Shown here: positions 7,116 to 55,555 of the stretch, piece after piece
How the letters are laid out: each line of letters begins with the position of its first letter
Numbering within the stretch: position 1 is the first letter of the stretch
From: a virus
Direction: 5' to 3' (one strand)
DNA: 64,000 nt
Virus record (IMG/VR): IMGVR_UViG_3300002835_000018
Program-made: the position numbers and the translations under genes
Notes under the pieces: model-generated
The model's database searches: none
Seen by the model: only the letters and a program-made list of their open reading frames with translations
Told to the model about the DNA's origin: nothing

Positions 7116-8556
7116 CTGGTAGTTCCTCTATTTGAAAACCATTATTAATTCTTGTTGATCTAAGTTTATAAAACTCATTTCTAGTTGGACCTTCTGTTAT
7201 TCTTCCATATTCATAATTTCCAGATATATTGATGTAATCACCAGCATCAATACCCTTGCCATGCCTTGCAACAACTGGTATGAGTTTTAAGTTGTATGAA
7301 ATATTATTGTCTGAAACGCTTTCATCTGCCATTTCCTCTTCTGTTTTACGCTTATAGATTGAAAAATTACTACACAACCACAAAATTCTATCAGAGCCTG
7401 ATGCAACATCTGTGTCTTCTCTTGTTATGCCATCTCTGTTTAATTGAGTAAAGGCCAAACAAGCAACCCCATATTGAACCATGAAATTGTGAAGACTCGT
7501 CATTAAAAAACCTAGTGCTTGATATTCAGCAATATTTTTTGATATTGTTCCATCATCCATCAATTTTATATAGTCAAGTATTATCAAACATGGTTTTGCT
7601 TTGCCAAAATCATCTAATCCAACATCTTTTATAACCCATCTTCTAGCAAGACTTAAAACTTCATCAAAGCTTTTTCCAGCAATAGACTTATATTTAAATG
7701 GCATATCTTTTAATGCATTTGAGGCATCGTAGACCCTTTTCTTTTTTGAGGAATCTTTTGAAAAAGATCCATTTTCAATATCTTCGATTTTAATGTTACC
7801 CATACAAGCCAATAGTCTATGCCAATGATCTTTCGCTGTCATTTCAGTATCAAACATTAAGACAGGTATACCTTGTTTAGCAACATTCATTGCAACATTA
7901 TCTGCAAAAAATGATTTGCCTGTTTTCATTCTTGCACCAATTAAATTAACTGTGCCTGGCCTAAGACCGCCTCCAATAGCCCTATCGTAAACTTTAAAAC
8001 CCGATGAAATACCAAGTTGAGATATTGGATTATCTTCTAAAAACTTTACATAATCATCTAAACCTTCAGATATTTCTTTTGGACTTGGGTCTTCTGCATT
8101 TGAAATTTTAAAAGTTTGATCTAATACAGTTGCTTCTGCAAGAGAAACTATTTGTGAAATAGGCTCATCACCTGTCATACCCAATAATTCAGTTGCACAA
8201 TTAGATAAGTTGTATGCTAAGGTCTTAGCAATTTGCATCTTTTTTAATTTTGCTGCTGCTTTTTTAGCATTAACTATTTCAACTGGCAACAATGTTAAAG
8301 ATCTAAGATACTTAGCCTGATCATCTTTTTGAAAAAACTGCTGTATTTTTAAAGAGTTTGCTACAGCTATAATTGATGGTATATCAGCTTTTGAATCTTT
8401 TTCATTTACTATTTTTACCAAACACTTATATATTGCGGATGTTTCATCAGAACTAAAACTGTTCTCATCAACAATATCGCAAATTTCAATATAGCAATCA
8501 TAACCCTTTTGAAAAAGAGCAGCCAATATAACTCTTTCAGATGCAACATCGTTCAT
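7093..8556 (-). CDS. dnaB: replicative DNA helicase
   Basis: GARMKTGKS Walker A, DTEM, ILDYIKL, QLNR. Confidence 0.93.
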   Translation of the reverse strand: MNDVASERVILAALFQKGYDCYIEICDIVDENSFSSDETSAIYKCLVKIVNEKDSKADIPSIIAVANSLKIQQFFQKDDQAKYLRSLTLLPVEIVNAKKAAAKLKKMQIAKTLAYNLSNCATELLGMTGDEPISQIVSLAEATVLDQTFKISNAEDPSPKEISEGLDDYVKFLEDNPISQLGISSGFKVYDRAIGGGLRPGTVNLIGARMKTGKSFFADNVAMNVAKQGIPVLMFDTEMTAKDHWHRLLACMGNIKIEDIENGSFSKDSSKKKRVYDASNALKDMPFKYKSIAGKSFDEVLSLARRWVIKDVGLDDFGKAKPCLIILDYIKLMDDGTISKNIAEYQALGFLMTSLHNFMVQYGVACLAFTQLNRDGITREDTDVASGSDRILWLCSNFSIYKRKTEEEMADESVSDNNISYNLKLIPVVARHGKGIDAGDYINISGNYEYGRITEGPTRNEFYKLRSTRINNGFQIEELPDEISGTN

Positions 8557-9480: not shown

Positions 9481-9841
9481 TAAATGGTAACTCCACAAGA
9501 ACTATTCCGTTGATTAAACACCATTCTTTCTTCTTATTGTCATTCGCCTTTGATGCCAAAAAGTTTAGCTGTGTTCCATGAAAGAAAGGAACAAATTTGT
9601 AATGCTGTTCCCCATGAACTTCTATGATTTTATTCCTTAATGGCAACCAAAAATCTGCGTACAAATTTCCAGATCCAGGCAAATGAACTTCTTCAAGTAT
9701 TCTATCTACTGGATATAAAGATTTAAGCAACACCCTAGTTCTTATGTGTAACTCCGATCTTTTTCTTTCATCGCTTATGTCTGGCATTTGACCATAAAAT
9801 GACCAAGAGTGCATTCTTCCATCTAAACCTTTTATTTTCAT
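9437..9841 (-). CDS. PD-(D/E)XK endonuclease (DUF559/Vsr-like)
   Basis: ADFWLP...IIEVHGEQHY...DNKKKEWC. Confidence 0.75.
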   Translation of the reverse strand: MKIKGLDGRMHSWSFYGQMPDISDERKRSELHIRTRVLLKSLYPVDRILEEVHLPGSGNLYADFWLPLRNKIIEVHGEQHYKFVPFFHGTQLNFLASKANDNKKKEWCLINGIVLVELPFNESTEQWQSRIELD

Positions 9842-11829
9842 GATAAAAGACCTTTTATTTCTTGCTCAAGAACTTTTACCCATAAAGGATTTTCAAGCAG
9901 TAGCCTATAAAGCTTTTCTGCACCTTGGGTTTTAACTTTTCTTATTGTTGCATCATCCCATTCTTTTGAATCTAACAATTTTAAGTGCCTTTGCATAAAA
10001 TCAAGTGTCATCCAAGCACCAGCTTTAGCTATAAGACCAAGTTGACAACCAAGATTTATGGCTTCATATGTATTATCAATACCAATGCCGTAACGAATAT
10101 AGCTGTCAATTTCCATTCCTGGTGAACCTAAAGCACAAGATTCAATTAACCAATGAACCTGTTGTCCAATTTGTTTTTCTTTGCCTTCTATGCCAACATT
10201 CCAAGCTTTATCAAATTTAACTCTCATTTGAACATCTGCTTGATACTGCAATGTTCTAGAACCTTTTTCTGTATAACCACCATACATACCCTGAGATTGG
10301 GTTAAGTGCATAATCGCCCAAACAATACAGTTTTGTACTGGCACTATATTAGCTGCTTGTCTGCAAAAACCAGCAAAGAGCTTATTACCAGCCCCTCTAT
10401 TTTCATACCCAATACCCTCATCCATTTCTTTTTCATCACATAGGGCAGAAACACTATCTATGATGATCAAACTTCCTGGATGCGTATTGATGGCTTTAAA
10501 AGCCAAATTTAGGTAGTCCTTTGCAGAAAGAATCTTATCTTGAGTAGACCTATAGATTGTCATCTTGTCTAAATTTAAGCCAGCTATGCCCTTTAGATTC
10601 ATAGGCTTCAATCGACCTTCAATGTTCAGATAATACACATGTCTACCACCATTCTCAGGTTTTTGACATTGTGCAGCAAAAGAAAGTGAGGTTAATGTGT
10701 TATGTGTAACTATAAAGTTATTGGTTAAGTACAAACCATCTTTTGTGTTTATGGTAATACAAACACACTCTTCTTTTCTTACTTTTTTTACAGATATTAT
10801 TTTTCTTTCAAATTTATTTTTTCTTTTTTGTAAAATGTTAAGTTTTAATATACAGACATATCTTTTTGAGTCTTTGTTCTTATGAACAGAATAGTTGCCT
10901 ATTCCTCCCAAAGATTGCACCAATGTAACGATATCTTCTGCAAGCCTTTGACTTGATACTGTAATAGTTAAGCTTTTATCTTTAGTTAAATATCCAGCAA
11001 CTTTTAAAATACCAGTTATTAACCTTGTTCGATTGTAAACGCCATCAAACAAATATTTTGGGGGAATAAACTTTTGGTTATTTGCAATATTAAAAAGCCC
11101 AAGCTTTATAAAAGGATTGGAATTTTTAGCAGATATCTTTTTGGATTCATTGTCATAAACTATATATTTTTTATCGCTATCAGACATTTCATTCACAATA
11201 TCTAAATCTTTTTCAAGAGTTACATATGTTGAATTTTTTCCAAAAATTCCAGCACCAAGAAAAATGCCCATTATGTATGGGGAAATCTCTTTGGTTGTTT
11301 CATTAAACAATGCAGGAGTAGAAATTGGTATAGAATATTTTGCTACTTTTCCAGACTTGTAATAAATATCATTAATAAAATCTTTAAGTTGTCTAACAAC
11401 AAAATCCTTATGATCTTTTGTTTTAATTGACCAAAGATGATCTAATCCGCACTCTGCAAATGTTCCATCAGAAAAACTTATTCGATAAACATCTTTAATT
11501 CCTTGTGGATAGATAGCGAGAATTTCTGCTGAATTACCATCATGTGTACATACATGCTCGCCCAACATCAATTCACCAATTGGTTTAGGACCATTTGGAG
11601 TATAAACAAGAGCAGAAACAGGCTGTTCTTTTCCGCTTTTTGGATGACCAGAACATGTAACCCAAGAACCTTCTGGTATACCACCATGTAAACCAAGATT
11701 TAAAGCTGGAGAAAGCGGTATAACATGCTTTTCTTCATCTAGCAAATCGCTTGCGTTTATTGCAATACCATTACCATATTGCTTTGATACTTCTTTGATT
11801 ATTTTTTCTACTTCATCACTCATTTTCAA
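9838..11829 (-). CDS. recA: RecA/UvsX-family recombinase containing an intein
   Basis: LNLGLHGGIPEG, Walker A GHPKSGK|T split by the intein, IIDSVSAL Walker B, IRYGIGID. Confidence 0.9.
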   Translation of the reverse strand: MKMSDEVEKIIKEVSKQYGNGIAINASDLLDEEKHVIPLSPALNLGLHGGIPEGSWVTCSGHPKSGKEQPVSALVYTPNGPKPIGELMLGEHVCTHDGNSAEILAIYPQGIKDVYRISFSDGTFAECGLDHLWSIKTKDHKDFVVRQLKDFINDIYYKSGKVAKYSIPISTPALFNETTKEISPYIMGIFLGAGIFGKNSTYVTLEKDLDIVNEMSDSDKKYIVYDNESKKISAKNSNPFIKLGLFNIANNQKFIPPKYLFDGVYNRTRLITGILKVAGYLTKDKSLTITVSSQRLAEDIVTLVQSLGGIGNYSVHKNKDSKRYVCILKLNILQKRKNKFERKIISVKKVRKEECVCITINTKDGLYLTNNFIVTHNTLTSLSFAAQCQKPENGGRHVYYLNIEGRLKPMNLKGIAGLNLDKMTIYRSTQDKILSAKDYLNLAFKAINTHPGSLIIIDSVSALCDEKEMDEGIGYENRGAGNKLFAGFCRQAANIVPVQNCIVWAIMHLTQSQGMYGGYTEKGSRTLQYQADVQMRVKFDKAWNVGIEGKEKQIGQQVHWLIESCALGSPGMEIDSYIRYGIGIDNTYEAINLGCQLGLIAKAGAWMTLDFMQRHLKLLDSKEWDDATIRKVKTQGAEKLYRLLLENPLWVKVLEQEIKGLLS
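10699..11628 (-). mobile_element. class 3-type intein (310 aa) with degenerate LAGLIDADG domain
   Basis: EQPVSALVYTPNG start, block B DHLW, block F VCI, end VTHN|T; removal restores GKT. Confidence 0.9.
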
Positions 11830-15333: not shown

Positions 15334-17625
15334 TTATATTAAACAAGCTCCACCAGCACAAGCAAGTTCTCCTTGAATATCTATTGTAGAATTAACTTCA
15401 ACAGCATTTAAATAATTAACATCAGAATAATTATTTATTAGCTTGTTCCATAAATCTAAATTATAAGCATCTTTAAGTGCATAAGTAGCGTACTTAACAT
15501 CAGAAGAAAAAAATTCATCTGCATATTTTTGCACCATAATTTTCCAAGTTTTTTGTTTTTCATCTTTTGGTTCAAAATAACCAAGAACACATGAACAAGC
15601 ATCCCACAAAGAATTAAAATTATATTCAGAAAATTTTGGGTAAGTTTCATATGCCTTAGATGTGGCTTCATAACCCCAATTAGCTATTTGTTCTTCAATT
15701 GAATAAACTGCTGTAAATGGAGCTTGATTATAGTCTTTATCTCCAGTTGAAGCTATGAGAGATATTCCAGCAAGCTCTGCACGATGATTGTAAATGTACT
15801 CTTTTACCTTATCCCACTCATCATCTTTTACATGTATTGTATTAGAAACATTGTGATTTAACTCTTTTCTAACGCAAAGATGTTCATTTTTTCCAGCAAC
15901 AACCCAATTTTTATAGGTTGATAAAACATCATCAAGCATAGATATAGCATCTATGTTTTCCTTAAGCACTGTTCCATCTTGGCTTTGTACACAAAACCTT
16001 ATGCAATCATCCGTTTTATTTGATGACCATACTGATTCTTCACATGCTTGAGGATTAATGCTTTTAAAGTGCTGGTAAGGAGATTCCATCTGATTAGCTT
16101 GAACAATTCTAAAATATCTTTTAGAATGATCTGGATGAATACCAGAAGCAGACCCTAATAAAGCAGCAGAATTACCCTCTGGCTTTACGCAAGTTGTTCT
16201 TGCAGCAGGACTTATGTTTAATATTTCTGCGTACTTTTTGTTTGTATCTTTAACTATTTTTGCTCCATTTTGTTGAATTGTTGGGTTTAATAGTATTTTA
16301 GGATGATGTTGCATACCATTAATTGAAACGCCCAATAATGCCTCTTTACGAGCAATAAGTTCTGTAACATGACCCAAGTATGGGAAATTGGTAAAAGATG
16401 CTTGTAATGTACCAATAAAGGCAGCAGCAGCACACCTTTGGTAGAAGTCTTCTTCTGAAGTTATTGTTTTTCCATTAATAGTTGATAAATTGCAGAATCC
16501 CCAACCAGAAAGACCGACCTCATCTTCTGGCATGTCATCTTTGCATGACTCTTTTGTTGTTATTGGTCCTTCATATAATGACAAAGCCTCAGCTAGTTCT
16601 GGACTGTTTTTCTTGAAGAAATGTTTAGTTATCCATGATATTTCACAACATGGATTACATAATGCATCATAAAAATCGGCAAAGAAAAATCCTGGTTCAC
16701 CAAATTCTTTTGTTGCTTTAAATAGATTTTCAAATACTTCTTTGGAAGTATATTTTCTATGAAGTAATGCAGAGATGTTTGCCCTAGCTCTTTGAGGGTT
16801 AGTGAAATACCAATCGCCAGTCTTTGCATTGATCATTAATTCATCATCGGCAGAGAATAAGGCTATAGTTGCAGATCTACGAACACCGCCAGAAATAACA
16901 GCATCAGCAGCAAACATAACTATATCGAATGCATCTATTGTTCTTAATTGTGTTTGCCCATTTGCAATACATCTATCGAGTAATTCCCTAGTCTTTTCTA
17001 AAGCTTTTTCTAGTGGTTGATAACCTGGGGCATTGCCTATGCCACAACTTAAAGGAGCACCCTTTTCTCTTATGTCTTGATAACTAAATCCAACCGCAAT
17101 ATCTTTGTATCTTTCAAATCCTTTTATTGGAGTTTCAAAATATGAAGAAAGAAGAACACCAAGAGCATCTGCCCAACCTTCGATTGAATCTTCAACCCTA
17201 TATATATGATGCTCATAACAACATGTTTCTGTGTTTAATCTAGTAGATGAGAACTTTGGCAACAATTCAACATGATGTTTTTGTACACTAAACCCAGTTC
17301 CAGACCCGCAAAGCAATAAATAAAAACATTCTTGGAAAAATCGTAATCTGTCGCAATAACTAGCAGAACAATTAAATATTCTTGCATTATGTTTAATAAT
17401 TGGCTTACCGCCAAACTGTAATGCTCTTTGTGAACCCAATATTTTTTGATCTCTGATCATTTCATAATGTTCTTCAATATCTTTACGCAAAGATGGATGA
17501 ACTTCTATCATCATATCTTTTATTCTTTGTACGCTTTCATCCCAAGTTTCCCTTCTTTTTTCAGATTCAATCCATCTAGCGTATTTGGAAACAGCCGTAT
17601 ATTTTTGTAATTCTTTAATAGACAT
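15334..17625 (-). CDS. nrdJ: class II (adenosylcobalamin) ribonucleotide reductase
   Basis: FNCS, GSGTGFS, GGVRRSA, NPCCEI, FCNL, TCVKPEG, C-terminal CAGGAC; no beta subunit nearby. Confidence 0.88.
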   Translation of the reverse strand: MSIKELQKYTAVSKYARWIESEKRRETWDESVQRIKDMMIEVHPSLRKDIEEHYEMIRDQKILGSQRALQFGGKPIIKHNARIFNCSASYCDRLRFFQECFYLLLCGSGTGFSVQKHHVELLPKFSSTRLNTETCCYEHHIYRVEDSIEGWADALGVLLSSYFETPIKGFERYKDIAVGFSYQDIREKGAPLSCGIGNAPGYQPLEKALEKTRELLDRCIANGQTQLRTIDAFDIVMFAADAVISGGVRRSATIALFSADDELMINAKTGDWYFTNPQRARANISALLHRKYTSKEVFENLFKATKEFGEPGFFFADFYDALCNPCCEISWITKHFFKKNSPELAEALSLYEGPITTKESCKDDMPEDEVGLSGWGFCNLSTINGKTITSEEDFYQRCAAAAFIGTLQASFTNFPYLGHVTELIARKEALLGVSINGMQHHPKILLNPTIQQNGAKIVKDTNKKYAEILNISPAARTTCVKPEGNSAALLGSASGIHPDHSKRYFRIVQANQMESPYQHFKSINPQACEESVWSSNKTDDCIRFCVQSQDGTVLKENIDAISMLDDVLSTYKNWVVAGKNEHLCVRKELNHNVSNTIHVKDDEWDKVKEYIYNHRAELAGISLIASTGDKDYNQAPFTAVYSIEEQIANWGYEATSKAYETYPKFSEYNFNSLWDACSCVLGYFEPKDEKQKTWKIMVQKYADEFFSSDVKYATYALKDAYNLDLWNKLINNYSDVNYLNAVEVNSTIDIQGELACAGGACLI

Positions 17626-19678: not shown

Positions 19679-21679
19679 CTATATAAGCATGAATAGTTTT
19701 TTGTCAATTAGCTGTTCTGGAAATCCATCAAAATTACTATATGCAAAAGTTTCGCCAGCCCTAATATGTTTTTCAGCATCTTTCTTCCTAACCCTGAGAA
19801 CACCTATAGGAAGATTATCGCCAGTATCAAAGTCTTTAAGGTGACCATGAGCATCGCCCCAACTATTAACAATAATTGCATATGGGTCTTTAGCCCTATC
19901 ATCAACGCCTATGAAGCACATTTGATGGCCCCAATTATCTGTCTGGCTATGAAACCCATCAGATTCTGGTTCCATTTCATATCCTACATCACTAGCAGTG
20001 GTGCAAGGATATCCATTAACAATAGCCTCAACCAATTGATCCCAACTTTTAATTTTCGCAGCAGACTTTACTGGGTGTTTAGTTCCTTCTTCAATAAACT
20101 TTTTATCTGGTCCTGGCGTATCACCCCATTTTTTAGCTACGCTTCCAGCATACTTAGGAACACCATCAAAACCACTACGCAAAACCCCATATTTAATAAC
20201 AGCATCTGCCATCCAACTCCCAAGAGAACCATCTTCACCATTCAATTGTCCACGACCAACAAGAACTCTTCCTGTTCCATAAAGATATGGAGGAAAGACA
20301 GGTTCAAATTTTTCGTGATCGCCTTTCATAAGTTTTTCAGTAGCCATTAAGTATTCAACAGCATTTTTAGCACCAAAACTTACACAGTTATGTTGAGCAA
20401 TACCATTAGCTATTAAAGTATGCTCTCCTTCAACAGTAATACAAAAAACTGGAAAGTCTGAAACTTGTTTTCTAGATATGTTAGTTATCTTTCTGGCAAA
20501 ACCAAATGGTGTTTTATGGATCTTTAATGCTTTGGGTTTGGTTACTTCATATGCACCTAAAGATAATGCATCAAAACCATATAGATCCATTTGACCAGCA
20601 GCAACAGTTTGATGAGAAGCTTTCTTTCTTTTTAATGTCATAGGGTTAAGATTACAAGACAAGCATAATCTAGATAAATCATTCAACAAAGAATCAGATG
20701 CTGTTACCCCAATAATTCTTGTTGCTCTTTTACTAAAATGACCATCTCCATCTATCCATCCTCTAATGCAAGATATCTTTACAGTTAATGGGCTATTAAA
20801 TATAAAAGATGGAACTGTTTTAGAGTAAGTATTATTGGGAATTAACTGCTTAATAAAAGTAGCTAATTTTGTGTTATGTATTTCTACTAACAAAACATTT
20901 TGTTTTTTCTTGTGGTAATATTTTTTAGCTTCTAATCCAAATACATTTTTAGTTATAGCTATAATTTCTTCCGCAAAAAGTTCTTCATTAATGTTAAAAT
21001 TAAATGTTATTTTATTGTATTTGCCATTAATAGCTGTTTTAGTCTTAGAACAACCACCTTCTGCTAAATATAAACCTATAAATCTTGCAAGATTTTCGTC
21101 TACCTTTATAGATTTTCCATTAAAACCTATGTGTTGATATTCAGAAGATTGAACACCAAAAGGCAAAAGAAGATAGTCACCTTTAGAATAGTCTTTAAAT
21201 TTCTTTTTTCCAAAACCATCAAATTTAAATCTATATCCATTATATGGCATAAATAAAGCATCATGCGTTTCTGTTGCGGTTATAGTGCGATTCCAACCCT
21301 TAACCTTTAAGGTAACTAGATCGCCAGTAAATCGTTTGCGAACTAGTCCTATAACTTTTCTAGGCTGGTTTATATGATTTAGTACATACTCGCCTTCAGA
21401 TATATCTTCTACGCTCTTCTCTGTACCATCAGCCATGCAAACTTTAGTACCAGCCACATAACAATCACCAATCTCTTGAGCGTAATTAGGCGTATCATTA
21501 CCAAGCACTTTACGAACAACATCGTACAACATCATCTTTTTGCCTTTAGTGTCTTGGCTTTTGCCATAAACATTAAAGTCTCTAAATGATCCATTATCTT
21601 TGATTAAATTAAATTCACTTTCAACAAGCGAAGGATTGTCTTTTCCTGCCCAACCATTAATCTTTGATAGTTCAAACAT
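19679..21679 (-). CDS. papain-like (C1) cysteine peptidase containing an intein
   Basis: Spliced Q-EIGD|CVSFG catalytic Cys motif, WGHQM His, VNSWG Asn. Confidence 0.88.
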   Translation of the reverse strand: MFELSKINGWAGKDNPSLVESEFNLIKDNGSFRDFNVYGKSQDTKGKKMMLYDVVRKVLGNDTPNYAQEIGDCYVAGTKVCMADGTEKSVEDISEGEYVLNHINQPRKVIGLVRKRFTGDLVTLKVKGWNRTITATETHDALFMPYNGYRFKFDGFGKKKFKDYSKGDYLLLPFGVQSSEYQHIGFNGKSIKVDENLARFIGLYLAEGGCSKTKTAINGKYNKITFNFNINEELFAEEIIAITKNVFGLEAKKYYHKKKQNVLLVEIHNTKLATFIKQLIPNNTYSKTVPSFIFNSPLTVKISCIRGWIDGDGHFSKRATRIIGVTASDSLLNDLSRLCLSCNLNPMTLKRKKASHQTVAAGQMDLYGFDALSLGAYEVTKPKALKIHKTPFGFARKITNISRKQVSDFPVFCITVEGEHTLIANGIAQHNCVSFGAKNAVEYLMATEKLMKGDHEKFEPVFPPYLYGTGRVLVGRGQLNGEDGSLGSWMADAVIKYGVLRSGFDGVPKYAGSVAKKWGDTPGPDKKFIEEGTKHPVKSAAKIKSWDQLVEAIVNGYPCTTASDVGYEMEPESDGFHSQTDNWGHQMCFIGVDDRAKDPYAIIVNSWGDAHGHLKDFDTGDNLPIGVLRVRKKDAEKHIRAGETFAYSNFDGFPEQLIDKKLFMLI
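20387..21463 (-). mobile_element. intein (359 aa) with LAGLIDADG homing endonuclease
   Basis: CYVAGTKV start, TETH block B, IGLYLAEG and IRGWIDGDG, end AQHN|C. Confidence 0.93.
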
Positions 21680-24603: not shown

Positions 24604-25002
24604 TTATCTGTTGTATAGGTTGTTAAAACAGTGAATAACCTGAGATATATAGTCCTCTTCAAAATTTTCTGATTCAAGAATAGAACTCATTTTTACAGCT
24701 TCATAAGTTTTAACAACTATATTGTCTGGAAGCTTACACATATAAACAAAGCTGTATTTTTTATTTGATACTATGGTTCCAGATAAAAATAAATTGATCC
24801 AACCAAAACCTCTTTTGTCTATTGGTTGAACACCAGTAATTGATTTAAATGATGCATTAACAAATTTATCAACATCATAATCATCGTCTTTCATTTGAAA
24901 ACTTGGCAATTCATAATTTCCATTTTCGTTTTTTGAAAATAGAATTGATGGCTCTTTTTCGTCTTCTGTTTTGCACATTAAAAATGATATTGTTAAATTC
25001 AT
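24604..25002 (-). CDS. hypothetical protein
   Basis: 132 aa coupled ORF. Confidence 0.65.
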   Translation of the reverse strand: MNLTISFLMCKTEDEKEPSILFSKNENGNYELPSFQMKDDDYDVDKFVNASFKSITGVQPIDKRGFGWINLFLSGTIVSNKKYSFVYMCKLPDNIVVKTYEAVKMSSILESENFEEDYISQVIHCFNNLYNR

Positions 25003-26063
25003 AATTCACCAATTATTGTTTCACAAGATTTTTCCCAAGTGTTTTCGCTAAAGTAATTTATGCCTTTAGAGTTTATTTTTAAATCACCCTTTTGTTTTTT
25101 CTCATGGATGCTTCTTAGTGCAGAAGAAAATTCTTCTACATATTTTTTTCCAAGTTTAGCCCATTCTGCTGAACCATCAAACCATTTTCCATCGTAAGCA
25201 CTTTCCATACCTTCTGGATTAATTAAAATCGCACCAGCATCATTAGCAAATTCTGTTGGACCAGAATAATTTGTAGCAATACAATGTTTGCCCATTGACA
25301 ACATCTCAGAAAGTTCTAAGTTCCAAGCTTCTGCACGATATGGAAATATGCCAACATCAGAACCATGCATAAGCCTATTAACATCTGCTTGAGATTTTAA
25401 TCTTTCTTTTAAAACAATTATCTTATCAAAATATTTACTTTTTTCAAAAAATGAAATCCAGTGATTTTGTTCTTCTTGTGACAAAAATGGATTAGAGCAA
25501 CACATTATAAGTTTGAAATCATCATCTTTATCAAAAGTTTTTTCTATAATATCTATGATGAGATCATGGCCTTTCCTTATTTCCCACTTACCAACACAAA
25601 CTATTTTGGTTGTTTTTTTATCATCTATTTTAGATTCTGGAAAAACTACTTTATCTACACCAAGTTTTACAACTACTATTTTTGAACTTTCCAAACCAGA
25701 ATTTATAAGAACATCTTTTGCCCAAGAGGATGTAACAAAAACTTTTTCTAAAAATTTTAAGTGGTGAACTTCATTTTCTTTTATTTTATTAGTTTCAAAA
25801 AATGTTAAACCAAACTTTTTACCATTTCCAACATGGGATGCCATATCAAACTGATGCCATATTTTTAAACTTGGTGCTGTGTAGTTAAATGTTTTTGTTT
25901 TTTCAATAGAAGACCTTAAGATATCATGTTTTGATTCTTCGCAATCTACTGGCCCAATTGGCCATAGTGCTACATTATGATTTTTTTGTAAATTTAAAAA
26001 AACATTTAAACCAACGACACCATACCCAAGCTGATTTATTGGGCAACTGAGATTTATATCCAT
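24999..26063 (-). CDS. GT4 glycosyltransferase
   Basis: VGKWEIRKG, YRAEAWNLELSE, ATNYSG; AAGGAGG RBS before ATG 26063. Confidence 0.88.
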   Translation of the reverse strand: MDINLSCPINQLGYGVVGLNVFLNLQKNHNVALWPIGPVDCEESKHDILRSSIEKTKTFNYTAPSLKIWHQFDMASHVGNGKKFGLTFFETNKIKENEVHHLKFLEKVFVTSSWAKDVLINSGLESSKIVVVKLGVDKVVFPESKIDDKKTTKIVCVGKWEIRKGHDLIIDIIEKTFDKDDDFKLIMCCSNPFLSQEEQNHWISFFEKSKYFDKIIVLKERLKSQADVNRLMHGSDVGIFPYRAEAWNLELSEMLSMGKHCIATNYSGPTEFANDAGAILINPEGMESAYDGKWFDGSAEWAKLGKKYVEEFSSALRSIHEKKQKGDLKINSKGINYFSENTWEKSCETIIGEL

Positions 26064-26088
26064 AGTATCCTCCTTATGCAAATCAAAC

Positions 26089-28670: not shown

Positions 28671-29274
28671 TAATGTCCTTGCTGTATTCAAAATTATAAA
28701 AATCTTTTTCTGCCCATTCAATTGTCATTTCAATTGTTTTTTTATTGTGCTCTTCTTTCCAATGTTTTGTCGATCCTAATTTCTCATTTATTATTGGAAC
28801 ATTAAAATCTATAGAGTGAATATTCAGCATTTTTAAATCACTTTGCAGGTTTTCCTGTTTTATAAATGAACGATACTTAGACACCCATTCTGTTATCGTA
28901 TAATGGAAAAAACCATCGTTAGAAAGTTTTTTATTTAAAACAAGACCTATAAATTCTTCAAGAGTTTTTTCTTTTAACAAAAATTCATTTTCGTAATTCT
29001 GTCCGTACTTCCAATGATTGTAAAGAGAAACTATTCTAGAAAAAGGATTTCTTACACTTATAAAAACATTATAGTCATCATATTCAGAACTTAATTTGTC
29101 AGGAGGCCAAGGGGTGTGTTGACCATTTATTTCTATGCCTTCAAAATTAACATTTAAATCTTGAATAAAAGCATTGTTGTTATACTTTCCATCCGTTAAA
29201 ACATATGATATGGCTGTACTACCAGTCTTTGGTGGTCCTATGTAAAGCCATTTCTTTTTTTTGTTAAGTATCAT
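28663..29274 (-). CDS. sulfotransferase-family protein
   Basis: PPKTGSTAI (5'-PSB) and RNPFSRIVSLY (3'-PB). Confidence 0.85.
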   Translation of the reverse strand: MILNKKKKWLYIGPPKTGSTAISYVLTDGKYNNNAFIQDLNVNFEGIEINGQHTPWPPDKLSSEYDDYNVFISVRNPFSRIVSLYNHWKYGQNYENEFLLKEKTLEEFIGLVLNKKLSNDGFFHYTITEWVSKYRSFIKQENLQSDLKMLNIHSIDFNVPIINEKLGSTKHWKEEHNKKTIEMTIEWAEKDFYNFEYSKDINV

Positions 29275-30304
29275 TACATTCTTTTATTTTTGAAAATATG
29301 TAATCTTCCCAATTTTTAATCATTGTTTTGTGTGTGTAATTACTTTCTACAATAGATTTAGCTAAAACGACCATTTCAGATTTTCTTCCTTGCTTGTAAG
29401 CTTCTTTTATTTTATTTGAAAATTCAACTGCTGTTGGTCTTACCTTGGTTGATAAACACAATTCACCATGTAAATTCATTAACTCTAAATAAGAGTTATA
29501 TTGAGTCGTTACAATTGGAACACCACAAAACCAAGACTCTAATAGTACTAACGGCATACCTTCTACATCTGAAGGAAGGACAATTACATCTGCACCAGCA
29601 TAGTAATCTCCAATGTTTTTTGTTTTTTTAATTAATTGAATATTTTGTTTTTTTATCAATTGAAAATCTTTTTTTAAAGAACCAGTATCAACAAATAAAA
29701 ATTTCCAACTTTCATCAAATAATTCTGAGCACTGAAGAAGAATTTTTGGATTTTTTTCTTCTGATAATCTACTTAAAAACAAAACAACTTTATTATCTTC
29801 ACAACCCCATTCTTTTCTTTGTTTCACTCTTCCTTTTAATTCTTCAAGTCTATTTATATCTATTCCATTGTATATTACAGTTGCATTATTTTCACTAAAT
29901 GCTGAAGCAGCAACTTTACTTACACCAACATGATATTTTGAATTTTTGCATGTTTGATTTATTAATAACTTATGATCTTTCCAAGATGGATCACTATGTG
30001 AAACATCTATGGTTGGACATTTTAAACTATTTTTTAAGTTTATATTTAAATTAAAACACCAAGATATAACTGCATCAGCATCACTCAAAAAATTTATAAT
30101 TTTTTCTGGATTTGAATAAAAGTTAGACAAAATTTTTGTTGTTTTTGGAACTTCTTCTAATAAAATTGAATCGCTTTGACCACTTAAATTTAAAATTAAA
30201 TAAGGGTCTAGTCTCTTGAAGAATTTTGCAAGAGTTACTATCCATCTTTCAGCACCACCCATGCCTAATGACGGTGTTATAAGTGCAACCTTTGGTTTAC
30301 TCAT
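29264..30304 (-). CDS. GT4 glycosyltransferase
   Basis: GGAERW, IYNGID, SRLSEEKN, SDVEGMPLVLLES. Confidence 0.9.
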   Translation of the reverse strand: MSKPKVALITPSLGMGGAERWIVTLAKFFKRLDPYLILNLSGQSDSILLEEVPKTTKILSNFYSNPEKIINFLSDADAVISWCFNLNINLKNSLKCPTIDVSHSDPSWKDHKLLINQTCKNSKYHVGVSKVAASAFSENNATVIYNGIDINRLEELKGRVKQRKEWGCEDNKVVLFLSRLSEEKNPKILLQCSELFDESWKFLFVDTGSLKKDFQLIKKQNIQLIKKTKNIGDYYAGADVIVLPSDVEGMPLVLLESWFCGVPIVTTQYNSYLELMNLHGELCLSTKVRPTAVEFSNKIKEAYKQGRKSEMVVLAKSIVESNYTHKTMIKNWEDYIFSKIKECNDT

Positions 30305-36622: not shown

Positions 36623-37186
36623 TTAAATTTTTTCGTAAATCCAACAATCTTTATCAATTAAAATTTTCTTGTCTAGAAAAAATTCATCAACCGCTTTTGT
36701 TACAGTTTTCCAAGAACCATAATCATGGCCAGATATAATGCCACCAATTTTAACTTTTGGTAACCATGCATTTATATCTGCTTTTACACTTTCATAATCG
36801 TGACTACCGTCTATAAATATAAAATCTATTGTTTTATCTTCATAATTTTTTGATGCAGAAATAGAATCCATTCTAACTGGATTAATGACAGAAGACAAAG
36901 AAGATGTGTTTTCAATAAACAATTCATATAAAGAATTGGATTTTACATATAAATCATTTATGTGTACATTTTCATTACTCCCCATCCATGTATCTATACA
37001 ATCTAATTTTATGTTTTTTTCAGAGTTTATAATCTCTACAGCAAGATAAGCTGAACTTTTTCCTTTCCATGATCCAACTTCAATAAATTTACTTCCAGAA
37101 GGAAACTTTTCAACCATTGACTTATAAAAGTCTTTATAATTAAACCAATCTTCGCCAAACTGTGGAAGTTGATATATGTGATTCAT
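36623..37186 (-). CDS. class I SAM methyltransferase (Methyltransf_24-like)
   Basis: EVGSWKGKS, FIDGSHDYESV, GGIISGHDY. Confidence 0.9.
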   Translation of the reverse strand: MNHIYQLPQFGEDWFNYKDFYKSMVEKFPSGSKFIEVGSWKGKSSAYLAVEIINSEKNIKLDCIDTWMGSNENVHINDLYVKSNSLYELFIENTSSLSSVINPVRMDSISASKNYEDKTIDFIFIDGSHDYESVKADINAWLPKVKIGGIISGHDYGSWKTVTKAVDEFFLDKKILIDKDCWIYEKI

Positions 37187-38433
37187 ATTGATACTTCACC
37201 AGGAACTCTCATTTTTAATGCTTCATCTGGAACTTTTAACAGATCGGCTTTTACATAAAGAATATCGTGTGTTTTATGCCATTCGCTTGGATAAAAGTTC
37301 TTAATTCTATTTGCTTGAAATCTTACTGGTGTTCCAATATATTTTGCCTGATCTCTTTTTGTGTAGTACCAGAAACTGTTACTGTTCCAAAATGATATGT
37401 GTGTTGGGTCTTGAAAAGCACCTCTTCCATCCGTTGATGGAGTTTGTGTCAAAAACCAACCCATTGGACATAGGCATCTGTATGCTTCTTTCATAACATG
37501 GATTGGGTCTTTTAAATGCTCAAGTGCATCATGTGCCCTTATCAATCCCACTTCGCCATCTTTAAAAGGCCAAGGATCGTTTAAATCATGTATAATTTCT
37601 GCGTTCTGCATGTCTACCGACTTGTACCCCTTTGGAGGATTAAAACCACCACAAAGGTCTATCTTAAGCAAACCATTAAGATCACACCATTTCTCAGCTA
37701 ATGAATAGATATACCTATCATGAATATTTAATGTTTCTTCTTGAATAAAAGCATTCTTTTCACCATAACAAGTATTGTTCTTATGCTTATAGTAAATGTA
37801 CAAGCATTTATCTATGTGTTTAACATTTCCTTGTATATATGTTTTGCAAAGAATATCATGGTCATCTAAAACTTCCATTGTTTCATTATGACCACCAATC
37901 TTTTCATAAAACGATTTTTTCCAAGCACGAACATGATTTGGGGCAAACCAAATTTTAGAAAATGATGCTGGAGTTGAATCAAAAGATATTAATTCTAAAA
38001 GATCTTTTCCATGATACTTAAAAGGTCTATTTCTCCAACCATAATAATCAGAATAAACAAATGGTTTCCCATCAGGGTCTATTTCTGCACAATTTGAATA
38101 GGCAAAATCAATTGTTTCATCTGAATTAAATGTGTTATACAATTCTTGCAAACAATCTTCTGTTAGCTCATCATCATGATCAACTTCAACTACTACAGTA
38201 CCGTTTGATCCCATAGACCCTTCTTTTTTGAAGAGTCCAATTAATTTTGAATTAGGGTTTTTTGATTCTAAAATTCTTGGTTTAAAAGCCAAAGATTCAA
38301 TATCAATATTGGCGTTTCCATTAGGAACAATCACCCATTCAAAATCTTTAAATGTTTGCCTTGCTATAGAACGAGAGAGTCTAGCAAGAAACTGTGTATT
38401 GTGTGTTGGTGTAACTATAGAAAAGTATGGCAT
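37183..38433 (-). CDS. GT2 glycosyltransferase fused to a methyltransferase-like domain
   Basis: SIVTPTHN, VDHDD; C-terminal DLCGG, HDALEH, AFQDPTH. Confidence 0.85.
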   Translation of the reverse strand: MPYFSIVTPTHNTQFLARLSRSIARQTFKDFEWVIVPNGNANIDIESLAFKPRILESKNPNSKLIGLFKKEGSMGSNGTVVVEVDHDDELTEDCLQELYNTFNSDETIDFAYSNCAEIDPDGKPFVYSDYYGWRNRPFKYHGKDLLELISFDSTPASFSKIWFAPNHVRAWKKSFYEKIGGHNETMEVLDDHDILCKTYIQGNVKHIDKCLYIYYKHKNNTCYGEKNAFIQEETLNIHDRYIYSLAEKWCDLNGLLKIDLCGGFNPPKGYKSVDMQNAEIIHDLNDPWPFKDGEVGLIRAHDALEHLKDPIHVMKEAYRCLCPMGWFLTQTPSTDGRGAFQDPTHISFWNSNSFWYYTKRDQAKYIGTPVRFQANRIKNFYPSEWHKTHDILYVKADLLKVPDEALKMRVPGEVSI

Positions 38434-41602: not shown

Positions 41603-42538
41603 TCAAGATGTTTTGTTGTTGTTTGTTATTATATCTTGAAAAACTCTGTCTATTGTCAAAACAGCTTCTTCCATATCTGTCATCATAGATATATGGTTTT
41701 GAAGATTAGAATTATCTATCGGTTTTTTTATTAAATTTATCAATTGTTCTTTATTTTTAAATGTTCCTAATTCAAAGTCTTTAATTATTTCTATTGGAAC
41801 AAATCCTTCTGTCTTGTCATATCTCTTAAATATTCCTTGATCTATAGGAACTAATACCCTCGTTCCTCTTGCAACCATATCAATTACAGAGTTTTCGTAA
41901 CTTCCTGGGTGTGTCAGTATAAAAGATTCTATTCTAGATGTTTTTTCCATGTACTCTTTATAATTACATTTAAATATTGGTTCTATAATTTTTGAATGTG
42001 GCTTATCATTTTTTTTTGTAAGCTGATAAATCTTATATCCTTCACTCACAATTTCTTCTAACCAATCTGTTATTTCTACAGATATGTCTTTTCCAAAACC
42101 TATTTGTTGATTGTGATCGTCTAAAAGAATTGTTTTCGCTATTTTTTCTTCGTGTTTAAACAATCTTTTTGAGCATGGGTATGGAATATAACACTCTGGA
42201 GAACTTTCCCTTAAATTTGCAAATGAATAATCCCACGAACTTTTATTTTCTAAAAAGGTTGAAGTTTTATAATTAACTTTTTCTTTTGCTAAACAATTAT
42301 TGTTTACAACATTTAATGTGTATAAAGATGTTAATAAAAAATCGCTTTTTGGAATTTTATCAAATGTTTTTTCTGGATTAAGTTCTGTTCTCCAATCAAA
42401 TGGAACAGCTTTTAAATTTACATGATTTAATTTTGAAAAAAATTCAAGCAATCCTGTTGAGAACCTTTCCATACTGTTTAAAGATTCTTCAACAGAATTT
42501 ACAAATTTACCATATAAGCATAAAGAATAATTAATCAA
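41603..42538 (-). CDS. hypothetical protein (possible GT-B fold)
   Basis: 311 aa; THPGSYENSVIDMVARG resembles a GT-B donor motif. Confidence 0.55.
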   Translation of the reverse strand: MINYSLCLYGKFVNSVEESLNSMERFSTGLLEFFSKLNHVNLKAVPFDWRTELNPEKTFDKIPKSDFLLTSLYTLNVVNNNCLAKEKVNYKTSTFLENKSSWDYSFANLRESSPECYIPYPCSKRLFKHEEKIAKTILLDDHNQQIGFGKDISVEITDWLEEIVSEGYKIYQLTKKNDKPHSKIIEPIFKCNYKEYMEKTSRIESFILTHPGSYENSVIDMVARGTRVLVPIDQGIFKRYDKTEGFVPIEIIKDFELGTFKNKEQLINLIKKPIDNSNLQNHISMMTDMEEAVLTIDRVFQDIITNNNKTS

Positions 42539-43812
42539 AATATATCTAACGATTTTCCTTCTGATATAGGTATTGGTCGCCCTAAATTATCTCGAATTTG
42601 AAACATTGGGTCTAAACCCAAAGCTTTGTACACTGTAGCATAAATATCTGAAATGCTGCAAGGCTTGTCTTTAATGTCCATGCCATCAGAGGTTGTAGAT
42701 CCATAAACCTGTCCACCTTTGATAGTACCACCCCCAAGAACCACAGACCAACATCTGGCCCAATGATCACGACCAGCATTCTGATTGATCTTAGGTGTGC
42801 GACCAAACTCGCCCATCCACATAACTACAGTATCTTTCCACATACCCATATCTACCAAGTCCTTGACCAAATATCCCATGCCCATATCAAGACGATTCCC
42901 ATTCCCATTCCTAATAGTACTAAAGATATTGCTATGATTATCCCATCCACCCAGGTCGATTTGTACACAGCTAACTCCTTTAGAAATTAACTTTCTAGCA
43001 AGAAGACAACCCATTCCAAAGTTATTTCCTCTACCACCATAAGACTCAATCGTTTTAGGATTTTCGTCTTTTAGTTCAAAGATTGTTTTTAGCGGAGATA
43101 GTGTAAGATCAAAGGCTTTGCCATAGATATTAGAATGAGATTGAGCATGATTGCCCATAGCTTCTCTAGCCACACTATTTTTAATGTGAGGTGCAATTCT
43201 TTCCGAAAAATCGTCTTCCAATGTATAAAACAGTCTTTGTCTTCGTCTAAGTCTTTCTTCATCATCTATTTCCTTTGGTGCTTTAATGTTTTCTGGTGGA
43301 GTTCCAGCATTTTGAACCGTGAATGGTGCAAGATTTGTTCCTAAAAATCCTGGCCCAATTCTTTGTGCTGAATTTCCAATACCAATAAATCCTGGTAAGG
43401 GTAGTTCTTTTGATGTTAAAAGCGAAGATGTTACTGATCCAATGGATGGATACTGCACAACAACGCTTGGTTGATGCCCAGTATTCATTAAAACAGTTCC
43501 TCTCTCATGACTTCCTTCGTTAGTCACAAGAGATCGAACAGCAACTAAATTGTGAAACTGAGAAGCGATTGTTGGAAGAACTTCACTAATGCTAACCCCA
43601 TTTGCTGAAGTAAGTATTTGTTTAAATTCACCACCATTTGCTTGACCCTGCTTTAAATCCCAAAGATCCATATGGCTAGGACCACCGCCCATCCACAATA
43701 CAATAAGCTTTTTTCCAGACTTTTTAAGCGTTTCTTCTTGTGCCTTAACTTTGCTCACAAAAGAAAGTGCTGAAATTCCAGCCGTATGTTTTATAAAATG
43801 TCTTCTGTTCAT
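42535..43812 (-). CDS. DUF1501-family protein with Tat signal
   Basis: NRRHFIK, GGGPSHMDLWD, GWDNH, GEFGRTP, GRDHW. Confidence 0.93.
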   Translation of the reverse strand: MNRRHFIKHTAGISALSFVSKVKAQEETLKKSGKKLIVLWMGGGPSHMDLWDLKQGQANGGEFKQILTSANGVSISEVLPTIASQFHNLVAVRSLVTNEGSHERGTVLMNTGHQPSVVVQYPSIGSVTSSLLTSKELPLPGFIGIGNSAQRIGPGFLGTNLAPFTVQNAGTPPENIKAPKEIDDEERLRRRQRLFYTLEDDFSERIAPHIKNSVAREAMGNHAQSHSNIYGKAFDLTLSPLKTIFELKDENPKTIESYGGRGNNFGMGCLLARKLISKGVSCVQIDLGGWDNHSNIFSTIRNGNGNRLDMGMGYLVKDLVDMGMWKDTVVMWMGEFGRTPKINQNAGRDHWARCWSVVLGGGTIKGGQVYGSTTSDGMDIKDKPCSISDIYATVYKALGLDPMFQIRDNLGRPIPISEGKSLDIF

Positions 43813-44039
43813 CTTTTCTCCGATCTTGGAATTGTTGGTGTGAACAATATGTCTTTTGGTTTTAAATCAACTGCATTATCTCGCATGATTTTAATGTTTT
43901 TTGGTGCTCTAATACGCACTCTAACTTGATTTGAAGATACATTTATTTCTTTAATGGTAACCTCTATATCACCAGAATCTGTATAAATAGTAAAAGCTTC
44001 ATTCAACTTTCTAGCAAAAACTAAACTTCCAATTTCCAT
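43809..44039 (-). CDS. csrA: carbon storage regulator CsrA homologue
   Basis: LVFARKLNEAFTI...QVRVRIRAPKNIKIMRD; AGGAGG RBS. Confidence 0.85.
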   Translation of the reverse strand: MEIGSLVFARKLNEAFTIYTDSGDIEVTIKEINVSSNQVRVRIRAPKNIKIMRDNAVDLKPKDILFTPTIPRSEKR

Positions 44040-46360: not shown

Positions 46361-46993
46361 TTAAAATTCCTTTATCCAAATATAAGCACGAAAATCACCA
46401 TAAGCCCATATTAGCTCAAATCCTTCAAGTTCTTTTTCACTTAGCGGATATTGTACACCACTTAAAGAAAGCTCTTTGTTAATCACCATCTTTAAAGATT
46501 CACCATTTTCAATCTTATTACGCCATGTAACTCTATTTAAAGCTGTTCCTAAATATCCACCCTTAGATTTCATTTTCTCCAAAACTACAAAAGCACCGCC
46601 AATCATACAATTATTTTTTAAAGAATCAATAAATGTTTCTCTTTTTGATGGATGAATAAAGCATAGAGACAAAATGCATGTAGCAAATGAAAACTCTTCC
46701 ATATAAATATTAAGGAAGTCATCAACGACCACTTCGCTTTCGCCCTTATATCTTTCTGCCATTTCCTTGCATTTTTCCACAGGTATATAGTCTATGTTTC
46801 TCGACTTAATCATACTTGATAAAGCCAACTCTACATTACCTGTGCTTGCCCCAAAATCATAACAATTTGTTTCTTCTGCCATAAATACCGATGCAATTTC
46901 TGGCAAGAAATGATTAACAAAATTACTGTGCCAATATAGTTGTCCAGACAAGTGTTCGTCAAACTTTTCTGCTATTTTTGAGAACTCAAACAT
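46361..46993 (-). CDS. CmoA-like SAM-dependent enzyme
   Basis: FEF..IAEKFDEH, YDFGASTG, GGAFVVLEK, K..NG.S......K...L..V. Confidence 0.8.
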   Translation of the reverse strand: MFEFSKIAEKFDEHLSGQLYWHSNFVNHFLPEIASVFMAEETNCYDFGASTGNVELALSSMIKSRNIDYIPVEKCKEMAERYKGESEVVVDDFLNIYMEEFSFATCILSLCFIHPSKRETFIDSLKNNCMIGGAFVVLEKMKSKGGYLGTALNRVTWRNKIENGESLKMVINKELSLSGVQYPLSEKELEGFELIWAYGDFRAYIWIKEF

Positions 46994-47874
46994 TCATGAT
47001 ACTCCTTTAAACATTTAGCAATGTATCTAACTGAAGGTACATGCATACCATTATATTTATATTTATCTGTATTTGAAGCACTTTCAATGTGCCAATCGTC
47101 AGGAAAACCCATGAGGCGAAGCCTCTCTGTAGGCGTTACTCTGCGTATATTTCCATTAGAAACTACTAAATCTGTAAATGATTTATAATCTCTTTTTGTT
47201 AAGGTTGATGAGACTCCGCATTCATCAAATTGATCACTTCTTTGGCGAGTAAAGTAGGCAAAGGTTTCATTGAACCACATGCTCTTTTTAAAATTCCATT
47301 CAAAGCTCTTTTTGACAAGTTCCACGCTTTGTTGACAGGTTCTAGTACTACGAGGGCCAAACTGGAGTATATCGCTATTGGCGGGGATTCCATCACGCAC
47401 CCCCAAAATGTAAACCCTACGCCTTCGTTGGGCTGTTCCACAGTATTGGGCATCGAGCGTTGTATAAGTCGCATCGTACCCGATGCTGGCAAGGTCTTGT
47501 AATACCGTTTCAAGCCCTCTTCCAAGCAGCATAAAGACATTTTCAATGACACAGTATTTTGGTTGAACATCTCTAACTGCTCGGAAGAATTCTTTCCATA
47601 GGAACGATCTTTTTCCATATATACCCTCCTTTGATTGGCTTGCTATAGATATGTCTGTGCAGGGAAAACCCCCAACAATTAAATCAAACTGATCTTTTTC
47701 ATATTTTACTTTTGTTACATCTCCATAATTGGGGATATTTGGAAAATTCTTAGCTAAAACTTCAGAAGGATACTTATCTAACTCTGCAAAAGCAGATATT
47801 TTAAAGCCCTCTTTTTGAAATCCTAGAGCAAATCCACCTATCCCCGAAAACATATCATATACTTTTAACATCAA
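46972..47874 (-). CDS. C5-cytosine DNA methyltransferase-family protein
   Basis: FSGIGG, GGFPC, ENV, QRRRR, RRVTPTERLRLMGFPD; atypical motif X. Confidence 0.92.
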   Translation of the reverse strand: MMLKVYDMFSGIGGFALGFQKEGFKISAFAELDKYPSEVLAKNFPNIPNYGDVTKVKYEKDQFDLIVGGFPCTDISIASQSKEGIYGKRSFLWKEFFRAVRDVQPKYCVIENVFMLLGRGLETVLQDLASIGYDATYTTLDAQYCGTAQRRRRVYILGVRDGIPANSDILQFGPRSTRTCQQSVELVKKSFEWNFKKSMWFNETFAYFTRQRSDQFDECGVSSTLTKRDYKSFTDLVVSNGNIRRVTPTERLRLMGFPDDWHIESASNTDKYKYNGMHVPSVRYIAKCLKEYHECLSSQK

Positions 47875-48620: not shown

Positions 48621-49367
48621 CTATATTTTGTACTTTCCCAAAAGTCTTTGTTTTATAAGCTCTTCAACTAATTTGTCGCCCTTTTGATCTTCTGTTGGGG
48701 CAAACAAAGCTTTATTTCTATCTTCGCTTCCAATGTCTGGTTCACAAACATAGTATATTGCTATTGAATTTCTTGATTTGTCAATTGGACATGTGATTTG
48801 ATCTGATATTCCATGCCAAGAATTTTGAGTTGTATCAAACAATAATGCTCTATTAAAAGTGCAATCTATTTTAACTTCAATCTGTTTTGGTTTTTTATTT
48901 TCTTCATCGTGTGACCATAGCTCTATAGCTCCACCCCAAGAGGTATCCCAATCTTTTGTTAAATATATTATTAAATTTATCTTTCTTTGTAATCCAAGCT
49001 TTGGGTGTATGTTGTAGTCTAAATGAGGGTTTAATTTTCCAGAATTGCCCATAGCGTGTATACCACCGCCATTTAAGCCATAGTCTGCCCAAACTTTTTT
49101 GCCAACTAAGTTAGATAGAGAGTCTACAAATTCTTTGCTTGTTAATTCAAATATTGTTTTATATATTGATTTTGGAAACTTGCACCACATATCACAGGCT
49201 TTTTTAACTTCAATCGCATTATTGTAGTAAAACCAAAAGTCATCATTAATAGAAGGAAACTCATCAGCTATTTGCATAGCCAATGAGCTTTCTAAAAAAT
49301 TGTCTATTACTAAATGATTAAATGGTTTTGAACTTTTCCACTTATTTAAATCATCTTCGTTAAACAT
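48621..49367 (-). CDS. 2OG-Fe(II) oxygenase
   Basis: PFNHLVIDNFL, HLD, SWHG, RNSIAIYY. Confidence 0.9.
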   Translation of the reverse strand: MFNEDDLNKWKSSKPFNHLVIDNFLESSLAMQIADEFPSINDDFWFYYNNAIEVKKACDMWCKFPKSIYKTIFELTSKEFVDSLSNLVGKKVWADYGLNGGGIHAMGNSGKLNPHLDYNIHPKLGLQRKINLIIYLTKDWDTSWGGAIELWSHDEENKKPKQIEVKIDCTFNRALLFDTTQNSWHGISDQITCPIDKSRNSIAIYYVCEPDIGSEDRNKALFAPTEDQKGDKLVEELIKQRLLGKYKI

Positions 49368-54987: not shown

Positions 54988-55480
54988 TAATCACCTCCAC
55001 TTGGAAATATACCTTTGATAAAACCAATTATACAAGCACATATCAGAATAAAAGTCATCGCATCTTTGTTCATTTGATCTCCTTGAGTAATTGTAATTGT
55101 TCACGCAAAGACTTTACTTCTTCACGCAGCTTACTTAGTTCTTCCTCGTTATGTTTAATGGCAAGATGAGCAAGATCCCACCTGTTTAACTTTACAAAAC
55201 CTTCAATGTCTTTTTCATTAATCATTTGTTCTCCTTTGCTCTAACATTATTTTTATTAAAATTTGGGTTCATTTGTAAGAAGACTTTCTTTGCTTCTCTA
55301 CAAGTTTTAGATTGAGAATGACAACATTGAAAAGCCCAAGAACCATCAGGTTTTTTTACAAAAATATCAATTATCATTTACTCTCCTTGTTATAGTTTGC
55401 CTTTAATATAAACCTAAAGCTTATCTATATCTCTGCCAGCCTTACATATACTTATTCGCATGACAGACCAATTTATTTAG

Positions 55481-55555
55481 TGGAATCGGCTGGATTTGAA
55501 CCAGCAACCGAATTTTTATGAGAAATTTGCTCTAACCAGATTGAGCTACGATTCC
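55481..55555 (-). tRNA. tRNA with CAT anticodon (Met or lysidine-Ile2)
   Basis: GGAATCG/CGATTCC acceptor, TAGCTCAATCTGGTTAGAGC D-arm, CTCATAA loop, GGTTCAAATCC T-arm; no encoded CCA. Confidence 0.92.

Follow-up and report, generated by a model that had tools for sequence, protein, structure and literature searches.

In Synechococcus phage S-B43, cytosines are modified by two enzymes acting in sequence. The phage CmoA (SpCmoA) produces carboxy-S-adenosylmethionine (Cx-SAM) from S-adenosylmethionine (SAM) and prephenate, about 10 times faster than E. coli CmoA (EcCmoA), and SpCmoX, an enzyme of C5-methyltransferase fold which uses only Cx-SAM, writes 5-carboxymethylcytosine (5cxmC), a product that blocks HhaI (Yang et al., Nat Commun 2025, December; PMC12783734). 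The CmoY ligase attaches glycine to the CmoX product, and CmoX Arg350, which stands in place of M.HhaI Asn304, binds the carboxylate (PDB 8YF3; PMC12783734). Further CmoX candidates were selected by Yang et al. using an SPPC motif plus this Arg (PMC12783734). The locus described here lies in an uncultivated phage, IMG/VR virus record IMGVR_UViG_3300002835_000018, of which 64 kb out of 88,245 bp (the window; CheckV completeness of the record, ~54%) were analysed. It consists of a C5-cytosine DNA methyltransferase (MTase) gene that overlaps a gene for a CmoA-like protein.

By analogy with CmoA–CmoX, the most economical reading is that this pair probably makes Cx-SAM and that the transferase writes carboxymethyl on cytosine. 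The transferase belongs to a lineage other than CmoX; this lineage lacks the published arginine and would have evolved separately. An earlier note on this DNA had outlined the production of a SAM derivative and its installation on phage cytosine; this outline has been demonstrated by Yang et al. for S-B43, and its novelty does not stand because a system of CmoA plus cytosine transferase is already published. What sets the present locus apart from that system is the separate, arginine-less transferase lineage.

Organization and conservation of the gene pair

The pair comprises the following features:

46972..47874, minus strand: C5-cytosine DNA transferase of the 'NGM' lineage, 300 aa (open reading frame, ORF; PF00145)
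46361..46993, minus strand: CmoA-like putative carboxy-SAM synthase, 210 aa, phage subtype B (ORF; TIGR00740, PHROG 4752)
46972..46993, minus strand: 22-nt overlap between the MTase 3' end and the CmoA-like start (ORF coordinates)

The record has a GC content of ~31%, and nearly all of its genes are on the minus strand. The CmoA-like gene begins (ATG, 46993) within the 3' end of the MTase reading frame, whose stop codon is at 46972–46974, in agreement with the overlap reported in the earlier note. This overlap suggests translational coupling. The same overlapping order, MTase and then CmoA, is seen in L042, L047, L048, L049, L050, L127, L130, L132 and L135, which are loci of related transferases (see below). 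Because the arrangement is found again in 19–20 close-relative IMG/VR contigs and in far more distant phages, it is not due to chance. When ratios of nonsynonymous to synonymous substitution rates (dN/dS) were computed against 18–19 close-relative metagenomic contigs, values of 0.03–0.07 for the CmoA-like gene and 0.11–0.16 for the MTase gene were obtained; both genes are under strong purifying selection.

The CmoA-like protein

The CmoA-like protein matches PHROG 4752 (4e-32) and the CmoA structures 4IWN/4GEK in the PDB (1e-10). In a fold model built with 28 relatives (predicted local distance difference test score, pLDDT, 89.3), template-modelling (TM) scores are 0.86–0.88 to the CmoA/YecO structures 4IWN/4GEK/1IM8 and 0.72–0.75 to the next methyltransferases; the predicted fold is that of CmoA, nearer to CmoA than to other class I methyltransferases. 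No match was obtained in a Pfam search, and the score against TIGR00740 (1.6e-18, 67.3 bits) is below the equivalog cut-off of 193.3. These two results would fit a conventional class I methyltransferase for a small molecule, RNA or protein that is adjacent to the MTase gene by coincidence. However, validated SpCmoA also falls under the TIGR00740 cut-off (115.6 bits), which is therefore tuned to bacterial CmoA. The fold match to CmoA clearly beats that to any other methyltransferase, K160 and K173 (EcCmoA K185 and K198) are invariant in the aligned phage CmoA-like proteins, and linkage to C5-MTases is conserved, which makes a conventional methyltransferase most improbable.

Residues were compared in an alignment of the window protein, the S-B43 protein (MN018232), E. 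coli cmoA and phage homologues, with 15 phage CmoA-like proteins in the residue table. The SAM-site residues of EcCmoA (D62, G64, S66, D89, D117 and F137) are kept as D46, G48, S50, E72 (Glu for Asp), D83 and F112. Like EcCmoA, the tRNA uridine 5-oxyacetic acid (cmo5U) Cx-SAM synthase (4GEK, 4IWN), the window protein thus combines the CmoA fold (TM 0.86), the SAM-binding residues and the two Lys residues. Unlike EcCmoA, to which it is ~25% identical, it has Glu for Arg199, Ile for Asn132 and His for Tyr39, and is shorter at the C-terminus.

EcCmoA Arg199 forms a salt bridge with the cofactor carboxylate (PMC3663124). In two independent alignments Glu174 occupies this column in the window protein, as the earlier note had read by eye. 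The note had taken the charge reversal to mean that the transferred group is neither methyl nor carboxymethyl, the CmoA-like enzyme making some other SAM derivative which the MTase installs. In addition to Glu174, other features of the window clade are compatible with that idea: His22 is in the column of EcCmoA Tyr39, the Arg that SpCmoA has at +4 is missing, and in the MTase a clade-specific His278 (Asp or Asn in close relatives) follows the motif X Asn at +3. However, SpCmoA makes Cx-SAM with a Glu at this very position, Glu, Asp or Gln occurs there in each of the 15 phage homologues, and the usual partners of this CmoA subfamily have the carboxylate-binding Arg. The charge reversal at the Arg199 column is a general trait of phage CmoAs and gives no argument against a carboxy product. 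The inference drawn from the reversal does not survive this comparison, and another SAM derivative is quite improbable.

The phage CmoA-like proteins are divided into two subtypes, one SpCmoA-like and the other, 'type B', shorter and marked by KELSLSGVQ; the window's protein is of type B. Unlike SpCmoA, the window protein (~210 aa) carries this motif and has no C-terminal alpha/beta insert, although both proteins have Glu at the Arg199 column and both are encoded in one operon with an enzyme of C5-MTase fold. In an IMG/VR survey of type-B genes 34–56% identical to the window's, an MTase bearing SPPC and ER.GR.VPP, the CmoX signature, is adjacent in 40 of 52 loci. Similarly, in Moraxella phage Mcat8 a CmoA 33% identical to the window's accompanies an SPPC/Arg MTase and ParB. 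As partners with the CmoX signature need Cx-SAM, these associations make it very probable that type-B enzymes synthesize Cx-SAM.

The transferase and its family

The MTase matches PF00145 (6e-55; 187 bits, cut-off 22) and TIGR00675 (169 bits, cut-off 100.65). The earlier note had described motifs I, IV, VI, VIII and IX as intact, and every one is found in the 300-aa protein: motif I is F9xG11xG13, motif IV is GFPC with catalytic Cys72 after P71, motif VI is E111-N112-V113, motif VIII is Q149RRRR (Q149-R151-R153), and motif IX is R244RVTPTE (R244..E250). Motif X is KYKYNGMHVPSVRYIA, with the core N275-G-M-H278-V-P. The protein is a member of a large family of phage enzymes whose consensus is GFPC[Q/T/S]DIS ... 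NGM[S/T]VP, here termed the NGM family.

The transferase shares the catalytic Cys/ENV/QxRxR machinery with CmoX and, like the gene for CmoX, its gene is associated with a CmoA gene. In contrast, it has GFPC-T (residues 69–73) where SpCmoX and Mcat8 have SPPCSAFS, and Asn275 in the column of SpCmoX R350 and HhaI N304. The nearest solved relatives are M.HhaI/HaeIII (2e-22), with CmoX 8YF3 at just 3.4e-8, and M.HhaI chains are the top Foldseek hits (E 5e-19, TM 0.68) of the fold model (pLDDT 76.7). Because SPPC-S and the Arg are lacking and M.HhaI ranks first in both comparisons, the window transferase is, as judged from sequence, not a CmoX, and M.HhaI is nearer to it than CmoX. As the published filter consists of SPPC plus R350, this MTase would be missed by it.

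The likeness to M.HhaI and M.HaeIII includes all catalytic motifs. Unlike M.HhaI, the window MTase has Thr73 for Gln82, no Gly before the motif X Asn and His278 at Val307, and it differs from both enzymes in the coupling of its gene to a CmoA gene and in the lack of a restriction endonuclease partner.

The cofactor pocket

In M.HhaI, Gln82, Tyr254 and Asn304 surround the transferable group, and substitution of Gln82 (Q82A) decreases methyl transfer ~16-fold and favours larger groups (PMC3526304). In the window MTase, the Gly that usually precedes the motif X Asn is gone and the usual [AS]-V is replaced by G-M; position +3 after the Asn, which corresponds to HhaI Val307, is His278, where the family has Ser/Thr. 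The letters KYKYNGMHVPSVRYIA given for motif X in the earlier note are correct. The pocket Asn, which the note had regarded as altered or lost, is instead kept as N275, because a family-profile alignment to M.HhaI pairs N275 with HhaI N304 (and SpCmoX R350) and a canonical phage MTase motif X GNAVAVPVVEWIG (L099) aligns without gaps with the NGM-family CNGMSVPVVEYIG. In MTase relatives at 66–83% identity, Cys takes the place of N275. When the full-length family was compared with canonical phage MTases by hhalign, just the N-terminal half was aligned.

Visual inspection and a MAFFT alignment with SpCmoX had pointed to Met277 as the counterpart of N304; this was overruled by the HhaI profile alignment and GNAVAVPVVEWIG. 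R228, at +3 after a 'TL' motif of the target recognition domain (TRD), was considered as a carboxylate-binding equivalent of HhaI Tyr254 and set aside: the TRD alignment needs a 2-residue indel and the model is of low confidence there. Arg at this type of position occurs in ordinary Dcm-type enzymes too.

The engineered enzymes M.MpeI N374K and M.MedI N377K resemble the window MTase in being C5-MTase scaffolds for the use of carboxymethyl from Cx-SAM, with the motif X Asn as the pocket position concerned. They differ in that this activity is gained by the Asn-to-Lys change, whereas the window MTase keeps the Asn. The analogy to M.MpeI N374K on which the earlier note had relied does not apply, as the equivalent N275 is unchanged.

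The kept Asn and the proximity to M.HhaI/HaeIII rather than CmoX are also what would be expected of an ordinary SAM-dependent writer of 5-methylcytosine (5mC). If so, the CmoA-like enzyme would serve another purpose: it might drain or divert host SAM into Cx-SAM against SAM-dependent defences, or feed host CmoB for tRNA cmo5U. SAM depletion was raised by Yang et al. as a possible side role of CmoA (PMC12783734), and some family members have no CmoA. A SAM drain, however, would deprive a SAM-dependent transferase in that very operon of its own cofactor. No CmoB turned up in the 88-kb record (~54% complete), so that a tRNA route of the phage for Cx-SAM is not apparent. In addition, 5mC writing leaves unexplained both the pairing of the same CmoA subfamily with Cx-SAM-specific CmoX and the coupling of CmoA to this MTase lineage in other genomes, as described below. 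A 5mC writer is thus unlikely, though it is a serious alternative.

Linkage of the transferase lineage to CmoA

The earlier note had named a lack of linkage between homologues of the two genes in other genomes as grounds for refutation; the linkage proved to be strong. The set comprised 14 non-redundant NGM-family loci with flanks, outside the window's own clade (MTase identity, 49–75%). A CmoA-like gene is adjacent, usually overlapping, in 11 of them (L042, L047, L048, L049/L130, L050, L127, L128, L131, L132, L135 and L136). Other phage C5-MTases retrieved by the same scan have a CmoA-like neighbour in 0 of 76 cases (Fisher p = 9e-12). Across phage backgrounds, conservation is limited to the pair and does not extend to its neighbours. 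Partners of the NGM lineage include both CmoA subtypes, each of which is also found with Arg-type CmoX; this mix-and-match pairing argues for one cofactor common to all.

Three of the 14 loci, those of Vibrio phages S4-7 and 1.052.A and of P0071, have no nearby CmoA; a 208-aa ORF upstream of the S4-7 MTase was inspected and is not CmoA-like. The hosts of unlinked family members may supply Cx-SAM. Vibrio vulnificus CmoB is cited by Yang et al. (PMC12783734), and the hosts of the unlinked Vibrio phages make Cx-SAM themselves. CmoA–MTase fusion proteins were searched for and none was found, which is weak evidence. Neither a ligase of the CmoY or asparagine-synthase type nor ParB was found in the 88-kb record (~54% complete).

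The change of Gln82 to Thr/Ser (PCT/PCS versus PCQ) was considered as a split between CmoA-linked and unlinked members. It is not the determinant of CmoA linkage, because PCQ members of the family (P0047, P0096, P0086 and P0100) adjoin CmoA too.

A third C5-MTase lineage adjoins CmoA-like genes (L159:124-1164, L050:5504-6520 and L128:4890-5936). Motif IV in this lineage is G[FV]PC[KL]P[FW]S, with Lys/Leu at HhaI Gln82, and motif X is YERCSGIP, where Ser replaces the Asn; the Lys might offer another way to bind the carboxylate. The CmoA partner in L159 is 64% identical to the window's CmoA-like protein, and in L050 and L128 an NGM-type MTase is present alongside the third-lineage one.

Two contigs each carry two diverged MTase–CmoA pairs ~150 kb apart: L044 and L047 in IMGVR_UViG_3300024358_000009 (206 kb), and L161 and L158 in IMGVR_UViG_3300024509_000007 (221 kb). 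The MTases of these doubled pairs are 75% and 69% identical to the window's. Either a real duplication in a large phage or the joining of two related genomes in assembly might account for them. In a 225-kb contig, an S-adenosylmethionine decarboxylase-like gene (L135:4172-4537, PF02675) is located just upstream of an NGM-type MTase–CmoA pair, which brings a further enzyme of SAM metabolism into that neighbourhood.

A model for carboxymethylation without the CmoX arginine

In the proposed mechanism, the CmoA-like enzyme would convert SAM to Cx-SAM with prephenate as the CO2 donor. The transferase would then pass carboxymethyl from Cx-SAM to phage-DNA cytosines, at C5, by the standard covalent mechanism using Cys72, and the resulting 5cxmC would protect phage DNA from host nucleases, as an anti-restriction camouflage like that of the S-B43 system. 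Since Asn (Cys in close relatives) stands at the position of CmoX Arg350, the carboxylate would be accommodated otherwise than in CmoX; candidate changes are His278 and Thr73, the residue that replaces Gln82 of the HhaI pocket.

Sequence, linkage and published precedent suggest that the CmoA-like enzyme yields Cx-SAM, that carboxymethyl is the group transferred and that the modification serves anti-restriction. This model is favoured because of the S-B43 precedent, the CmoA fold, the CmoX-signature partners of type-B enzymes, the 11/14 linkage and the mix-and-match pairing, and also because the pair alone is conserved, both genes are under purifying selection, Thr73 is at the Gln82 position and CmoB was not found in the record.

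Several points weigh against the model. The main weakness is the Asn at the position of the basic residue: in all enzymes tested so far (SpCmoX R350, M.MpeI N374K and M.MedI N377K), Cx-SAM use depends on this position, and N275 is a plain Asn. Wild-type M.MedI, which has Asn, shows only weak carboxymethyl transfer, with a kcat/KM ~360-fold below that of N377K. SpCmoX R350N is inactive with both cofactors (PMC12783734). In the fold model of the window MTase, the TRD (residues 189–234) is of low confidence. The sub-threshold TIGR00740 score, the three family loci that have no nearby CmoA and the failure of the Gln82 change to separate linked from unlinked members belong here as well.

Other genes in the window

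A 2-oxoglutarate (2OG)-Fe(II) oxygenase gene (48621-49367, minus strand; PF13640, 2.3e-16) is located three genes upstream of the MTase gene. It was considered as a follow-up modifier and rejected, as it is present in the closest relatives but absent beside the pair in L023, L042 and more distant loci; it is probably unrelated to the modification. A DUF1501 protein with a twin-arginine-like N-terminus (42535-43812, minus strand; PF07394, 1.3e-91) is unusual phage cargo, and is kept at 72–99% in related phage contigs, close to the MTase–CmoA pair. Its gene is overlapped by that of a CsrA homologue (43809-44039, minus strand; PF02599, 5.6e-10).

Three glycosyltransferase genes (24999-26081, 29264-30304 and 37183-38433, all minus strand) encode two GT1/GT4 enzymes and one GT2 enzyme fused to a methyltransferase domain; no connection of these genes to the MTase–CmoA pair was seen. 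The replication module (1731-3644, 7093-8556 and 9838-11829, all minus strand) includes DNA polymerase III alpha (PHP and NTPase domains), a DnaB-type helicase and a RecA-like protein. A large ORF has a weak match to ribonucleotide-reductase alpha, and downstream of it an ORF contains Hint/intein-splicing and LAGLIDADG domains, which mark it as an intein-containing gene (19679-21679 and 15334-17625, both minus strand). A lone tRNA-Met (CAT) gene is at 55480-55555 (minus strand).

Implications

In the NGM lineage, Thr73, His278 or a TRD residue may provide the contact with the carboxylate. In a rarer and stronger version of the idea, the window clade, with His22 in CmoA and His/Asp/Asn at +3 in the MTase, may handle a different SAM derivative. 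If the carboxymethyl assignment is true, this family would offer a second, structurally different scaffold near M.HhaI for enzymatic carboxymethyl labelling of DNA, which is useful for methylation sequencing chemistries, now dependent on engineered Asn-to-Lys mutants. If just 5mC is made, the tight CmoA linkage would point to a separate role of phage CmoA, for example SAM diversion as a counter-defence.

The chances are about even that writers of carboxymethyl on DNA cytosine arose at least three times from C5-methyltransferases, namely as Arg-type CmoX, as the NGM lineage and as the CmoA-linked lineage with GFPC-K/L and ERCSGIP. If an Asn-retaining lineage uses Cx-SAM, the single-arginine rule is incomplete, and 5cxmC in phage DNA would be undercounted by surveys using it. 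If there were at least three origins, the SPPC plus Arg signature would overlook a considerable proportion of the natural enzymes that write 5cxmC.

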